NCBI GenBank assembly: GCA_017654855.1
Contig: CM030332.1
Span: forward strand, 1,364,001 to 1,428,000
DNA: 64,000 bases
Direction of reading: 5' to 3'
Source of the DNA: Podospora anserina
Taxonomy: Eukaryota
The translations under genes and the position numbers were made by a program. Below the pieces are notes generated by a model that saw nothing but the letters and a program-made list of their open reading frames with translations, was not told where the DNA came from and searched no databases. This document shows, piece by piece, positions 7,689-15,136 of the stretch. How positions within the stretch are numbered: position 1 is the stretch's first letter; the number at the start of each line of letters is the position of its first letter.

Positions 7689-7851
7689 TCATCTTTTATT
7701 TTTATTTTCTCCCACTGTGGGAGGAGCATCGTGGCGTGGGAGGAGCATCGTGGCGTGGAAGCTTTGGCCAAGGGCTGGTTCTTGGCTGGTGCCATGGGGA
7801 ATCGATCCTTTTTATTCACCTTACCCGCGTTCAATGTATCTTTGAACGACA

Positions 7852-7883
<32 letters not shown>

Positions 7884-8152
7884 AACGATCACAACACCAT
7901 CTTGTTAAGCCTATGCACTTGCTTACGTGTCTCCCCCCGTCTGTACTGTCTTCAGTTTGAGTTCGTCCATTTTGCTAACAGTATGGTCGGCCACGCGAGT
8001 TCGTAACAAGCCTCCGCCATGATGGAGCCACCTCTCAAGCCGCTATCTGAGTGAAACCCTTTCTCTCCTGTCCCATGGTCGCGTGATAAGCTTTCCTCCT
8101 CTCACCACTAGCCTCATCAAAAATTTGCAACGCAAGACATACAGTTAACAAT

Positions 8153-8871
8153 ATGGATCCGGGGTACGTGGCCCTCTTCATCTATCCCGACACCCGTGTG
8201 CCATCGATCGAGGGCCCAGACGAATTTGCGGTCACCATGACATATCCGTTCGGAATATCCTGTAAGTTCCAAGATCCCATATGCGAGAGGACGACTGACC
8301 ATCTGTGGTAGTGGCGAATCCCCAGCTCAGGGGTCGATATGAGACCGAAGATGAAGAGACCTCCCCACAAGCCCAGGTCACGGAACGACAGGCTGTTTTC
8401 CCAACTGATGAGCTCGGTTCTCGAGGCCGGAAAAGAGGCTACACCCTCGCGCACCAAGACGATTAACAACCGGCTCCCATTCTCCCAGGACACTTGGAAG
8501 GTTTTCTCCACAACGAGGAGGAATACGCTCGGCTCACCAAGAGGGGGCGATACGAGTTTGCCAGGTCTGGAAAGGAGCCTCGCTTCGAGGATATTATGGC
8601 AAACTTGGAGGATTTCATGGCAAGCTTAGAAGATCACTTGCCCGAGCCTCAGACCACTGAAAACAGATACACCCCAGCAATCTGTCCGTGTGGCGTTGAG
8701 TACTGACTGATTCCGTATTGGGAGAGGGATAAGAAAAACTGGATCTGTCGATGGGCTGCGTTGATCTAGGATGATGACGGGGACGGGAGATATGATCACG
8801 ATTGTTCGTTGGGACCTATATGGACGACATTCAAGCTCGATTTCTGGAAGTTGGTCTTACCAAGCGAATGA
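8153..8871 (+). pseudogene. Orphan family module A (interrupted by in-frame stops; AT-donor intron)
   Basis: ATG 8153; phase-1 intron 8262-8311; in-frame TAA 8464; putative phase-2 intron 8667-8726 starting AT; TAG 8767. Motifs VPSIE, RKRG, EEE..RLTKRGR, LGPIWTT shared with neighbours. Confidence 0.5.
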
Positions 8872-8951
8872 TAGCCCCTTTCTTGGGGTGGAACCCATGG
8901 GACAAGTGCTGGCGGGCGGGCGGGGACTCTATTCACTGAGTTTACTGATCA

Positions 8952-9507
8952 TTGATTGATAACCCTATCTCCTCCGCCATCAGACTCGCCACGGAGCCGT
9001 CTACCAGTTTTGTTCCCGCCAACTATACCGGCTTCGACGTTGAGTCGGTGCTCATGGAGAAGTTGCCCAGCATTGAGCAAGCGACTACTGCCACAATTTG
9101 CGACCCCGACATCCCGCTTCCCCCGGTCGAGCTTGAGGATGCAATCGCCCCCAACTATATCTATCGAGAGCTGAAGGACTTGGTAGGTTCAAGACCGCGT
9201 AATACATATCATGATGAACGTACGGTGTTTACAGGTCCTGATCTCGCGGGGTTTATACCTTTGACTCCGTTCATTGGAGAAATGTTCGAAACCAGCTGCC
9301 CAAGAGGTGACGCCGCCGTTATCTGGAGGCTTTCTACCAGCTCACGAGCCGGCCCTTCACAGTTGCAAGAGAAAGCGTTACAACAAAACGCCATACCCTC
9401 GCAGAGACCCTAAGACCGGCTACGTGGCTCCCATCCTTCTGAGAGGGCAGCTCAAAGTCGAAGATGATGAAGAAGATGGCCGAGAGCTGAAGAAGCCAAG
9501 AGATTGA
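8952..9507 (+). pseudogene. Orphan family module B
   Basis: IPLPPVELED, then putative intron 9183-9234 (weak branch site), in-frame TGA 9262, then KRKRYNKTPYPR...APILLRG...DDEEDGRELKKPR, similar to modules A, C, D, E. Start uncertain. Confidence 0.4.
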
Positions 9508-10255
9508 TTCACTCCTGTGGGGGCAAAGAACCTCGATTTCAGAATGGGACGACAGAAGTGTTACTCTTGAATATCATTCAGGGATCAGGCAAACCTCGGG
9601 TTGGGATGATTGTAACAGCACGCTCGAGCTGAGTCTGTTGCCTCGAGTGGATGAGGACTTTGCCTGGGATGGCTATAAATATAAACATTTGTTGCTTGTA
9701 CTGTTTCGTTGCCGCCATGACTACCACTTCTCTGACCCGTGAACACTGGTGGAAGTTCATGGTCTGCGTGGAATTTCCATATTCACGTGATTGTTTATTT
9801 TATGTTGCCATTGCTTCCCTCCCACGCTCAAACTTCGAGTGTCGTCCCAGCCCTCAGGCAGACGCGCGTGGTCCGCGTCAGGTTGCTCCTTCCTCAAGTT
9901 ACTCCGTGCCATTCAGAAGAATATCTTGCTATTGTTCATCTGAATAATAATAGGGCAATGACGGCAGGGGTCGACGGAGCCGATGAACTTTTTTCCTGTT
10001 GCAGGAAGAACAGTCTCTTCCCACCACCGCTCTCCTCTCACAGATCTATTCCCAGATCTCTGCCCAGCTCTCTCTTCCCACCGACTTTTCCATTCACTGC
10101 CTCCTTTAACCAGATCTTGTCGACAATATACGTCGAGCTTCACTCTCATTATTCGTCATCGCCAGGGTTGAGACCAGTGTCTTCACACCGACCAATTCTC
10201 GGAATACTCCATCCTTGCCGCAGTCGCAACCAGCACCTCTTCAAAAGTCGCTACC

Positions 10256-11470
10256 ATGAGATTCGCCGGCTGCTACGGTGATAACCCCCGTACCGCGCTG
10301 TTCCCCTGGTACAAAGCGCTTGGAGACCTGATAATTCCTGTTCCTTCGATCGCCTGTGACGAGCGCGATGTGCCCATCCGGTCGATGGAGCACGAAGGAG
10401 ACCATGCCTTCAAACCACGCGCGGGAGCCGGGCGATTTGGTAGGCTCGGGATATTCAGTATCAGAAAAAGCCATACTGACAATATTAACAGCTGAGTTGG
10501 TTGCTTCACAGTTCGATTCTTCTCCAGCTCAGAAGCACGATACCCCGTGGGCTGGATCGTGGACGGAGGCGGCCAAGAATGCGTCTGAAGCCATCAAGAC
10601 AGGGTTTATTTCTACGACTCAGTCTCGGAATAATTACAGCCAGAAAAGAGGCTTCAGGAATAGCTCTTATCCTCGATAAACCCGAGGGACTGATCATGTG
10701 CCTGTTCTTTTGGGAGGGTCCATCGACAACACCAGCGAGAGCGATGAGGAGGAGCATTTTCGTCCGACCAAAAATATGCGTTTCCAAGCGACTTAGATTT
10801 CCCATGATGACCATCAGGACCAGGAAGGCAATGAAGGAATCGAGTCAGGAGACAATATTGAGGAAGATGACGGCCAGTATGCCGATTCGCTGTCTTTCTC
10901 GCCACCCAACAGGTTTGGCCCCTGTTTATATATTGCTGAGTACCTATCATAAACAGCCTTTACTAACTAGAAACCGTAATAGTGACGACAAAATCCTCAC
11001 CGATGCCTGGCTGGAGTCCATTGTCGATCTGAACCCAGCCGATCACGAAGCCGACACTGATGACCGAAACTTCATTAAGGCCTCGCTGGAATCCGTTGTC
11101 GGCTTGAGACCAGCCGATTATGAAGCCCAGAATGACGACAACGCCTTTGATAGGTTTGTCTTTTCCTATTCACATACTGCTCAGCTACTATCATGAACAC
11201 CCTTCGCTGACTAGAGACTGTGGTAGCGACGAGAGTAGCCTCATTGGGGCCTGGTTAAATTCCATTGTCGACCTGAGCCCAGCCGATCACGAAGTCTGGA
11301 ACCACGATACCGTTTTGGGCGGCCCTGTCTTCCATAGCCGTTATACAACCGCCAGCCGTTCTGTGTCTTGCAGATCATGCGCCAGTCTTGGCCGTTCTGT
11401 CTCTTGCGGCTCGTCCGCTATTCATAGCCGTTCCGTTTCTGACGGCTCGTCAGTAGCTCTTGGCCGCTAG
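10256..11470 (+). pseudogene. Orphan family module C (4 exons, two in-frame stops)
   Basis: ATG 10256; introns 10440-10491, 10913-10982, 11154-11226 all keep frame; in-frame TAA 10677 and TAG 10794; three WLESIVDL.PAD-type repeats. Confidence 0.55.
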
Positions 11471-12325
11471 AGAAAGCTTTATGGGGGGCCTTCTGGGATT
11501 TTATACAGAATGCGGTCGCACAGCCGTTTGGCTTGCCCTAGCTCATAGAGTTTTCTCAACTGGTAGGAGGAACCAAGATAGATAAACGTACTGAATATCA
11601 TATTTTGTGTCAGAACGTGTGTCCCCCAGATTACTTCGGGTACCTATAAGACAGATCAAGACGATTAAAATGGAAGTATTCTGGATATATATCCTCTAAC
11701 TCTGAGCTATGGTCCGTCATCAAAAGATGACTTTTACATTGAGGACGTTGTAATTGTTGACAATTCTTGGCATCTCTGTACCTCCCTCCAGCTTTGACCT
11801 GAGAGAGTGGAGGACGGACTTTGAGTAGATAGTTTGTGATTCCTAAGCTCAAGCCTCCACCTTCAGAATTGAAGAGATTCGGCTCAGGTAATAACGGGAG
11901 TGAGGATATATAAATACGGATTTGAGATCACCCATAGGGCAATGTCAGGCTACTTCGTCGTGTAAGCGTCGTAGGGAAGTCAGCTAGACCAGAAGTTAAA
12001 GCACGTGGTTGATGAATTCTTCATAGATTTCAACTTGCTCCGCGCTATCCACTTGAGCATCTTGCTATTGTAGGCTGGAGCAACAATAAGAGCAATACTT
12101 ATTGAAGGGTGGGCCGTGGCCGACTGCTCCTCTCAAGTGAATCGGGACAGTACCTTTTCTCTTGAAATATTTTCTTTTGTCACCTCTCATCTTCGACCTT
12201 CTCTTCACAGAGCATCCGTCCTCAGAATTTGGGCCCGCTGCTTGTATCGATCGGTTCGCACCTTTCAACCTTCAATCGACATCCCCAACCATAACAACAG
12301 CTCGAGATCCTTCAGCACGACCAGC

Positions 12326-13464
12326 ATGGAGTCTACATCCAACTATTATACGGGCAGCTTTTGTGGCGAATCGCCATCTCTGAATCGCAGGTAGTTTAGC
12401 CATGAAGGTGAGCTCGAAATGAAAGCCAATGAATTCTTGATGATCTACCACTTAACACACCTACAAGTCATGGAAGCCATGAGGATCGAGAGACTGCCCC
12501 GTTGGAAGGGTTCCTTATGTCATGTGGCTCCCTTGCCTTCCCACTCGGATGCTTTAATGAGCCAGACTCCTGCCGAGCGCGGGCAAAAGCGACAGAGACG
12601 TTCATCGACGCCATACTACCCCAAGGAGGGGCCTCAAGCCAGTCACACCAGGGAGGACCCTGACAACCAAGACGGGAACAACGACGAGAATTCCCGCCCA
12701 ACCAAAAGACAGCGGGTGACCCACGACGACGCCGTGCCTGTGGCGCCCTCCAGGACTCTTGACTTTGAGGATATTCGTTGTTCAGCTTCGTCAGAGACCC
12801 TCGACTTCGAGAAGATTGATTCTTCGGCCTCTTCAGAAACTCTCGACTTTGAGAGACATGATTCTTCGACCGCTTATGAGCCCACGCGTTCTTCCTCTGG
12901 CCATCCTACCGCCATTGTTGATCAATTGTTTGATTCCGATATTGCAGCCCCTTCTCCCGAGGCTGTCGAGTCTGTGATGAAGTCAGTTGAAACCGACGAC
13001 GATTGCGAGGAGTATTCTGAGCTTCTATCGTTCTTGCCACTGACCAGATCCGTTCTTCCCCCTGAATTCATTCCAAGCTTTTATCTTTCTGAATCTTACT
13101 AACGGGCTATGGCAGTCACGCTGATCCAACAATCTTGGATCACTGGACGGAATCTATTGTGGGAATAGACCCAACAGAGCTCGAGAACGAAGCGGTTGAG
13201 TCGGCAGATCTTGGTGTTTGGACCACTCATCTAACTTTTGGAAGGAGGGTGTCCAACTGGCTGGAATCAATCGTCGAGGTCGGGGAGAACTGGGAAGATG
13301 ACACGCCCAGCTCAGTTATTCCATTTTCAAGGAACGACCAACGCAACACCATTAATAGGGGGAGCGTTCATGATCGGTACCCACGAAGTCCCAGCTCAAT
13401 CCCAAGACGCCGTCAGTTTGGTTTCGTACTAGTATCATGTATGTTAGAGTCTGGAGTGTACTAA
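12326..13464 (+). pseudogene. Orphan family module D (in-frame TAG in exon 1; AT-donor intron)
   Basis: ATG 12326; TAG 12392; phase-1 intron 12408-12467; motifs PRWKGSL, QKRQRR, RPTKRQR; putative intron 13048-13115 starting AT; then WTESIV and WLESIV motifs. Confidence 0.55.
12755..12868 (+). repeat. 42-bp coding tandem repeat, about 2.7 copies (TLDFE....SASSE)
   Basis: ACYCTYGACTTYGAG starts at 12755, 12797 and 12839. Confidence 0.85.
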
Positions 13465-14449
13465 ATAAATGGACAGAAGGGGTCAATTAGCTCTTTACTT
13501 CATATTTTGTGCTGGGAATGCCTGAAGACTATGACTAGTTCCAGCAAGAGCGGAAGAAGATGCTCACATAAGCGTTTCCAGAAACCCACAACAGATATAG
13601 GACGGTTTATAGAAAACACTGCTTACATACTTCCCATCGTTAAATGAAGTTTCCCCCTTAGTTTCCCTGTTCTAAACCTACTACTTTGAGAAAGTTTACC
13701 TTGATAACAAACTATAATAGCGCTGATAAAAACCTTTACGAAGATATGTAGAAGTTTATTGCCCATGAGCACAGCAAATCAAGCCGCCTGGGAATGGTAA
13801 GTAGTGCCCTGGATAAGACAATCTCGGTTGTTTACCTTTCCCATATTCTTTCTCCTCACTGAAAAACCAGTCAAACTCTCATCATCCATTACACCAAGAC
13901 TTTGAAACTTCAACAACATCTCTTTACATACCTTCATACCGATTTTCTCCAATGCCACTGCTCCCAGCCGCTGGTCCTGTTCCTGCCCGGGTCTCATCCA
14001 ACATGGGCCAGAAAACTAACACCACGCTTCCTGACCCAGATATGCCTCTTCCGTCCACAGCTGTGACTTGAAAACGAAAGACTTACCACCCTAGATGAGG
14101 AAGGGGGAGACTGAAGCGGGGAGTGTCAAATGAAAATGTACAAATTAGTTCTTCTTCAGCGACACCTTCTTGCAATGTAGTCATTTTTGTTGTTTTCAAA
14201 GTTGCTCCCGGCGTTCTGGTGGACCACTACTTTTGCGTAAGCTGATCTCTTCTGTCCACCACTTTTGGCGAAAAGCTCTCCCGAACTTTTTTCTACTGTC
14301 CGTCCCAGATTGCCTCCATCGATAACCTTCATCGGCCACCCTCATCGCACAAACCATGAATACTACCCTCAACGGGTTGGTGGCTGGCCGACAAGCGCAC
14401 CGCAGGCAGAGCCTGTCGCGCCCAAGCCCAGGAAAATCAGTACGATGTT

Positions 14450-14998
14450 ATGATGCCATTCTTGCCACTTCGCAGGTTCGTTCCTTTCCTAATAACGACT
14501 TTGCTTCTCACGTCCCAAATGAGGCCACTCAGAAGCAGTGATAGTAGCGATCGGGATGTTGTGGATGAGTGGCTTGATGATGAAGTCAGTATCACTCCTG
14601 ATGATAGTGAGATGTGGGACGAGAGCACAGCTGTGGATAATTCCGTCTCACCCAGCTCGTCACCTGTAACGGAGGACTATTTCGAAAGCGAGAAGGATTT
14701 CGAAAGTGAGGAGGAGTTTGGTGATGATGAGGAGTATGAGTATGTCGAGAATCTCGAGAATGACGACACCAGAGACCCTCATTCAGCCCGGGGTTGTCGT
14801 TCGGTCACACCCGAATACCGTCCGGCAACGCCCGATCATCGCCAGGCCACTCCCCACTTTCGTCCGGACACGCCCAGCTACCGCCTGGCTACTCCCAAGA
14901 GTTCCAGCATCGGCACGCGCAGTCCCAGCGTTGACTTGAGCAGTCCAAAGTTCCATTCGGTTCAGCCCGAGCACTTACCCAGCCAGCCCGAGCTATAG
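14450..14998 (+). CDS. Hypothetical acidic, Ser/Pro-rich ORF, possibly the 5' part of a degraded gene joined to module E
   Basis: 182 codons with an acidic tract and RPATP-type 7-aa repeats; ends in TAG-TCC-TAG; start uncertain. Confidence 0.35.
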   Translation: MMPFLPLRRFVPFLITTLLLTSQMRPLRSSDSSDRDVVDEWLDDEVSITPDDSEMWDESTAVDNSVSPSSSPVTEDYFESEKDFESEEEFGDDEEYEYVENLENDDTRDPHSARGCRSVTPEYRPATPDHRQATPHFRPDTPSYRLATPKSSSIGTRSPSVDLSSPKFHSVQPEHLPSQPEL

Positions 14999-15136
14999 TC
15001 CTAGGCCTTAAGGAATACGCCCTTTGCTCGGCGTCTGGACTCTCTTCCAGCATTCCAGAACCCCTGTTAGAGAAGAAGCGGAAGGAGCATGACGACGGAA
15101 TCAACGAGATATCGGACATACCTAATGTATGTCTGA

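Follow-up and report, generated by a model that had tools for sequence, protein, structure and literature searches.

Noncanonical Donors and mRNA Editing in Fungi

The telomerase RNA of Aspergillus is one of the closest described systems for an intron that begins with AU: at its AUAAGU site the first step of splicing proceeds and the second is blocked, with the spliced form barely detected, and splicing returns once A1 is replaced by G (Kannan et al. 2015, PMC4299874). The same study reports that A at position +1 inhibits splicing in a protein-gene intron, that C at +3 inhibits splicing too, and that both letters are very uncommon at these positions among annotated introns (PMC4299874). Here, we describe a window of Podospora anserina DNA, namely the whole stretch of 64,000 nucleotides that was analyzed (GCA_017654855.1, contig CM030332.1, positions 1,364,001 to 1,428,000 of the forward strand), in which four neighboring genes on the + strand, designated modules A, C, D, and E and belonging to the Podospora anserina complex, comprise two intron-like stretches with AT in place of GT at the donor, one in module A (8667-8726) and the other in module D (13048-13115). 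The explanation that we favor, with a probability of roughly 0.7, is a recent, ordinary G>A loss of the donor in module D, a fast-evolving, lineage-specific gene without a known family.

Two further systems are relevant to donors of this kind. Terminal AT-AG dinucleotides occur mainly in U12-type introns, 20 of which have been compiled in four species (Sheth et al. 2006, PMC1557818). In addition, Neurospora and Fusarium, two related genera, edit adenosine to inosine (A-to-I) in their mRNA in a stage-specific manner, and the fungal sites carry U at position -1 in more than 70% of cases, with a preference for hairpin loops (PMC11156358).

The Family Intron of Module D

The upstream part of module D (12326-13047) begins with an ATG at 12326, may comprise a first intron from 12391 to either 12483 or 12492, and remains open up to the letters ACC AG that precede the donor. 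The following element (13048-13115) displays a presumably mutated donor, ATCCGT, with A at +1 and C at +3, a TACTAAC branch site at 13098-13104, and a GGCAG end at 13115, and it is followed by exon 2 (13116-13464), the frame of which is joined to that of exon 1 only by removal of 13048-13115. When the element is kept, the frame runs into TAA 13100-13102, inside the branch site; in module A the corresponding reading ends at TGA 8704, inside TACTGAC, and both stops had been pointed out in a first-pass annotation of this DNA. The letters and coordinates quoted there for the three modules are all confirmed by reading the sequence, including (i) AAC AG/ATACAC at 8667, TACTGAC at 8701-8707, and GAGAG ending at 8726 in module A, (ii) AAC AG/GTTTGG at 10913 in module C, and (iii) ACC AG/ATCCGT at 13048 in module D, where the slash marks the putative exon-intron border.

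Compared to the architecture of U2-type introns, the stretches of A and D lack the 5' GT (or GC), with AT at 8667 and at 13048, and possess the CTRAY branch and the 3' AG, as TACTGAC..GAGAG in A and TACTAAC..GGCAG in D. The pattern AG/AT..CTRAY..AG occurs at chance level, with 62 instances on the + strand, where shuffles give 63.2 +/- 9.2, and the stricter branch ACTRAC gives 7 instances against 4.9 +/- 2.5.

The region 8000-15000 was compared with a DNA run (X15) and with three runs from three studies (X1, X2, and X5). X15 departs from the window at four positions only (12229, 12700, 13862, and 13884) and shows no other letter than AT at 8667 and 13048; therefore, the strain from which it derives has A at both sites too. 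The runs X1, X2, and X5 are not recorded as RNA and are taken as RNA-derived because they contain GT..AG joints that are absent from X15. Their contigs show the presence of a form and not its absence, such that rare forms can be missed, and as they do not cover 11744-14083, they have no bearing on the expression or splicing of module D.

Judged by sequence comparison, the stretch 13048-13115 is a true homologue of the intron found in modules C and E. Protein similarities were expressed as Smith-Waterman z scores against 500 shuffles, and DNA flanks and stretches were likewise compared with shuffles (300 in the case of the D-E flank). The nearest annotated relative of module D is a hypothetical protein from Cercophora samala comprising 330 amino acids (P0002; z 50 against D). 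In tblastn, this protein matches exon 1 in frame +2 (12503-13045, 39% identity, E 5e-24) and exon 2 in frame +1 (13069-13407, 52% identity, E 1e-24). The annotated P0002 reads SELLSFLPLS/SHNDD...GIDPTELEN, and module D without 13048-13115 reads SELLSFLPLT/SHADP...GIDPTELEN, with the junction at the same codon; therefore, the intron position predates the split of the two genera, and exon 2 was maintained by selection. Within the cluster, module C is similar both to D (z 7, a score reached by none of 500 shuffles) and to E (z 4, reached by 1 of 500), and the donor flank of D, TTCTTGCCACTGACCAG/ATCCGTT, agrees with that of E, TTCTTGCCACTTCGCAG/GTTCGTT, in 29 of 45 columns (z 4.1, reached by none of 300 shuffles).

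All the other family introns, comprising the two introns of module C (C1 and C2) and that of module E, carry G at +1. By parsimony from these three introns and the annotated junction of the orthologue, G is probably the ancestral letter at the D donor and A the derived one. Set against the intact orthologue, module D would carry a disabling lesion, an AT donor at the very codon where P0002 is annotated as spliced. The inactivating G>A is the one option listed in the first-pass annotation that fits, for module D only, and it is given up as an inherited or parallel event in two paralogues, given that module A is not a member of the family (see below).

The search for an annotated protein of module D among 645 candidates of 115-368 amino acids returned two matches and no such protein, one match being an open reading frame (ORF) called on an assembly and the other the C. 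samala protein; similarly, the six matches to D at E <= 0.001 in a representative library include no annotated full-length form. At the protein level, two relatives differ from D at 15 of 227 residues (P0001) and at 1 of 100 (P0003).

Two additional ORFs match the 3' portion of the module. P0004 was considered as a copy of exon 2 altered by repeat-induced point mutation (RIP) and rejected, since it equals the window with every C read as T over 79 of 79 residues; it matches 13102-13338, the next codon becomes a stop under the C-to-T reading, and it is an artefact ORF from the assembly of a C-to-T converted, bisulfite-like library. P0007, a 50-residue ORF of a relative (approximately 13373-13500), joins by eye two frames of the D 3' end, without the stop at 13462, which suggests that the D tail of that relative has undergone an indel and lost or altered a stop.

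Donor Loss and Alternative Explanations

According to the favored explanation, modules C, D, and E are paralogues that share a phase-2 intron placed just before a W-x-E-S-I-V-like motif, forming a tandem set of fast-evolving genes that belong to no known family; Pfam returned 0 families for seven proteins, and no further paralogues were detected within the window at E <= 1e-3. The ancestral GT donor of D would have become AT, with a C also present at +3, and the resulting AUCCGU carries both +1A and +3C. We infer the loss of splicing in D from the published biochemistry: because +1A would prevent productive U2-type splicing, the gene would yield at most the protein of exon 1 extended by an intron-coded tail of 19 residues up to TAA 13100, and a truncated product at most would make D, most likely, a recently disabled gene. 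The neighboring genes carry lesions as well, and the context fits a decaying cluster in which A has a new TAA, C has two in-frame stops (TAA and TAG), and D has lost its donor. This context agrees with the many pseudogenes that Silar and co-workers reportedly described in Podospora in 2018, the shared feature being nonsense or splice lesions that set the lineage-specific genes of sister species apart.

Several observations weigh against this explanation. Both exons of module D are still open (235 and 123 codons), its branch site and acceptor are perfect, and exon 2, at 52% identity, is the better conserved part, all of which would also fit a working gene. The interiors of the D, C1, and E introns are not significantly alike (z 1.3-1.6), which leaves position, phase, and flank as the basis of the homology. 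Because Arg is encoded by AGA as well as by AGG, P0001 cannot distinguish A from G at the donor, and a metagenome pattern scan for the donor base in relatives gave 0 matches. Furthermore, no RNA of module D has been observed, and a minor spliced isoform of module A may exist, since the contigs can miss rare forms. AT-AG termini are, in addition, annotated for 21 introns (0.0228%) in the long-read-based annotation of Ganoderma lingzhi (PMC11590231).

The Ganoderma introns, the open exon 2, and the intact TACTAAC branch and CAG acceptor are the elements that would speak for a module D whose AU...AG intron the major spliceosome still excises, possibly in sexual tissue only, giving the full protein alongside a short unspliced isoform. 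We regard this as improbable, given that in fungal test systems splicing is inhibited by +1A or halted at its second step (PMC4299874), that the D donor additionally carries +3C, and that an annotated D protein was not found among the 645 candidates. The switch between a short and a long isoform by AU-AG splicing that had been proposed for this DNA is likewise shown by nothing obtained here, and the published effect of +1A speaks against it. The intron could instead undergo the first step only, as in telomerase RNA, with spliceosomal cleavage at 13047 serving 3'-end formation or decay; AUAAGU together with a good branch site drives such a cleavage in Aspergillus (PMC4299874), and D displays a perfect TACTAAC 12 nucleotides before the AG. 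However, the effect depends on the context, +1A alone being insufficient in a protein-gene intron (PMC4299874), and no site that would stabilize the cleaved 5' exon is known in D, so that this outcome appears very far-fetched. Stage-specific processing of the D intron in either form, as full noncanonical U2-type splicing in sexual tissue or as first-step-only cleavage, deserves little credence; if true, it would be without precedent among the protein-coding genes of filamentous ascomycetes.

Other alternatives leave the AU donor aside. Three upstream GT dinucleotides, GTCAGT (12982-12987, + strand), GTATTC (13012), and GTTCTT (13030), are in frame with the acceptor at 13115, and the use of any of them would keep exons 1 and 2 in frame without a stop and produce a slightly shorter two-exon protein; yet each deletes residues that are conserved in the orthologue (SELLSFLPL), 13012 and 13030 have no G at +5, and 12982 has C at +3, and we doubt that D is spliced in this manner. 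The closer GT at 13052, which the first-pass annotation had named as a possible donor, is present but out of frame with 13115. A truncated D, comprising exon 1 and the tail RSVLPPEFIPSFYLSESY, might itself be the working form, the donor change being a fixed shortening and not the death of the gene. P0001, despite its 15 differences in 227 residues, carries exactly this 19-residue tail at its end, followed by the same stop; at approximately 7% divergence, however, 19 unchanged residues are expected by chance about once in four, and the conserved part of the family is precisely the C-terminal half that is lost, which renders this reading unlikely. Altogether, the recent donor loss in module D is the explanation that we retain.

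A-to-I Editing, RIP, and the Minor Spliceosome

Editing of the donor from AU to IU in perithecia, which would switch splicing on, could draw on the stage-specific editing described in Neurospora and Fusarium (PMC11156358). The two candidate adenosines, A8667 and A13048, are both preceded by G and not by the U found in most fungal sites, which bears out the earlier remark that a preceding G is not the preferred context. Folding predictions place A8667 in a stem, not a loop, and A13048 in no stable hairpin (minimum free energy -1.7 kcal/mol, z 0.8), and the three RNA-like runs display no A-to-G change at 8667. Donor editing is consequently disfavored at both sites, and we consider it extremely improbable as an explanation for module D.

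RIP was examined and rejected as the cause of the donor change, with TpA/ApT of 0.49-0.67 and (CpA+TpG)/(ApC+GpT) of 1.18-1.25 in modules A, C, D, and E. As noted in the first-pass annotation, GG>GA falls outside the classical RIP context, and the region has no RIP-like dinucleotide bias.

U12-type introns comprise a donor with the consensus RTATCCTT and a branch with the consensus TCCTTAAC, and the minor spliceosome is, to our knowledge, absent from ascomycetes. A U12-type intron was rejected by eye on this consensus, which is mismatched by both D (ATCCGTTC with TACTAAC) and A (ATACACCC with TACTGAC). From their letters, the donor and branch of D are of the U2 kind.

Module A Is Transcribed across the Intron-like Stretch

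The stretch 8667-8726 of module A is no intron but ordinary transcribed sequence. Contigs from X1 (8312-9673), X2 (8312-9645), and X5 (8312-9376) bridge it unbroken, and these same contigs do splice the intron 8262-8311, with the joint 8261>8312 present in three of the three RNA-like runs. The splicing of 8666 to 8727 proposed in the first-pass annotation left no joint in these runs, all three of which are unspliced across the stretch.

The coding part of module A (8153-8466, + strand) comprises an exon at 8153-8261, the GT..AG intron at 8262-8311, and an exon at 8312-8466 that ends in a premature TAA (8464-8466). The nearest annotated relative, a Podospora comata protein of 167 amino acids (P0008), displays Gln at this codon, one T>C step apart. 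P0008 reads ...TTENRYTPAICPCGVEY, is translated through the "donor" of module A, and ends at 8703, followed by TGA (8704-8706); therefore, the TGA "inside the branch site" is the stop codon of that gene. In the sister species, the AT...TACTGAC...AG stretch of module A (8667-8726, + strand) is coding up to 8704-8706 and supplies the C-terminal 13 residues together with the natural stop, TGA, whereas here it lies behind the new premature TAA.

The published transcript of Pa_1_3691 measures 1784 nt in Table S1 of PMC9801653, with a 5' untranslated region (UTR) of 237 nt and a 3' UTR of 1235 nt, which leaves 312 nt; the distance from ATG 8153 to TAA 8466 is 314 nt including the 50-nt intron. This row matches the coding part ending at 8466, and the AT..AG stretch therefore falls in the 3' UTR. 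Table S2 of the same source contains 0 occurrences of Pa_1_3691 or Pa_1_3692 as alternatively spliced.

By any test made on its sequence, module A is an unrelated neighboring gene and not a member of the C/D/E family. Its Smith-Waterman comparisons with C, D, E, and P0002 gave z values of 1.0, -0.2, -1.4, and -0.8, with 82, 266, 492, and 420 of 500 shuffles, respectively, scoring equally well; the best blastp match has E 0.65, and when stretch and flank were compared as DNA, z was 0.6-1.7. A six-frame scan of the window for W-x-[EDNQ]-[SD]-[IVL]-[VIL] disclosed five matches, at 11008 and 11252 (module C), 13144 and 13258 (module D), and 54254 (unrelated), and none in module A. The idea of one homologous intron in two paralogues consequently survives for D, on its junction and flank, and is abandoned for A, which shows no similarity and is unspliced.

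The 3' UTR of module A is very long, at 1235 nt as published and with RNA contigs extending to 9673. It includes an open frame of 154 codons (8949-9413), without a Pfam family, and a GTAGGT...TACAG stretch (approximately 9184-9235) that is unspliced in the contigs. Between the upstream gene and module A (7718-7885) lie a 21-nt direct duplication (GGAGGAGCATCGTGGCGTGG-like, approximately 7722-7763) and a (GATGTC)n run (approximately 7859-7885). Pa_1_3690 and Pa_1_3691 can be placed on the window by their published coordinates only if an offset of about 18 nt from one gene to the other is allowed, which may reflect an indel at this place that separates strains or assemblies.

Modules C and E

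Module C (10256-11470, + strand) matches PODANS_1_3692 of P. anserina S mat+ (P0009, 161 amino acids) with 100% identity over the matched part and contains three RNA-supported introns (10440-10491, 10913-10982, and 11154-11226). The last two are the family introns, and both are real, since the joints 10910>10981 (cut +2) and 11150>11224 are present in three of the three RNA-like runs. For the first intron, the joint 10438>10491 is found in one of the three runs (X1), and an alternative GT..AG joint, 10276>10491, which skips 214 nucleotides, in another (X2).

Ahead of its conserved C-terminal exons, module C contains two in-frame stops, TAA 10677-10679 and TAG 10794-10796. The P0009 model has a long intron that skips 10677-10796 and reads through the second family intron, whereas the RNA contigs keep the stretch with both stops and splice all three introns; therefore, the mRNA of module C would encode approximately 124 residues, with two spliced introns in its 3' part. 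The module also displays an internal tandem duplication (10913-11397), the unit of which is the intron plus the next exon. The C1 and C2 introns agree in 53 of 74 columns (z 9.0) and the exons in 118 of 187 (z 9.2), and the intron was therefore copied together with the exon.

TAA 10677 occupies positions 2-4 of the 7-nucleotide loop of a predicted 6-bp hairpin, UCCUCG AUAAACC CGAGGG (10670-10688). This is the U-A-in-loop layout favored by fungal A-to-I editing, with a whole fold that is no better than shuffles (z -0.55). A rescue of the C and A stops by editing was considered and rejected, as UAA would become UGA, still a stop, and no edited letters are seen in the RNA-like runs.

Module E (14450-14998, + strand) shows the family donor GTTCGT at 14476. 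Its family intron (14476-14538, GTTCGT...CAG) is 63 nt long, in frame, and without a stop. Two RNA-like runs read through it (X2, 14300-14545; X5, 14400-14658), and no joint at 14476-14538 appears among the contig pieces shown.

Significance

As it stands, the donor loss of module D means little, adding one more disabled gene to a genus that is reportedly pseudogene-rich, and module A is a false positive that arose from intron-like letters in a coding or untranslated tail. On the practical side, the published model of PODANS_1_3692 could be corrected from the RNA contigs, and module D offers, in a fungus that is a tractable model, a naturally occurring donor with +1A and +3C, of use for seeing the effect of such a donor in mRNA.

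Comparison with Known Systems

The genes of Fusarium and Neurospora whose stops are restored by editing (PMC11156358; PMC10776026) resemble the cluster in being expressed Sordariomycetes genes with in-frame UAA or UAG and U at -1; they differ from it in that two of its three stops are UAA, which editing to UGA leaves as stops, and in that no edited letters are seen. The U12-type AT-AG introns share their terminal dinucleotides with the stretches of D and A, but the donors ATCCGTTC and ATACACCC are off the U12 consensus, and the TACTAAC branch of D is U2-type. The AUAAGU of telomerase RNA in filamentous ascomycetes, from the same subphylum, has in common with D a strong branch site and an A at +1; unlike D, it is a conserved functional site in a noncoding RNA with an Sm/LSm site, whereas the A of D would be derived and its coding frame needs ligation. 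The nonsense lesions that reportedly separate Podospora sister species are close to that of module A, where TAA stands against CAA. Finally, although the D exons are still open and its loss of splicing is inferred only, module D resembles the known +1 G>A donor losses in displaying a single transition in an otherwise intact, positionally conserved intron that, when retained, would stop the frame after 18 codons.

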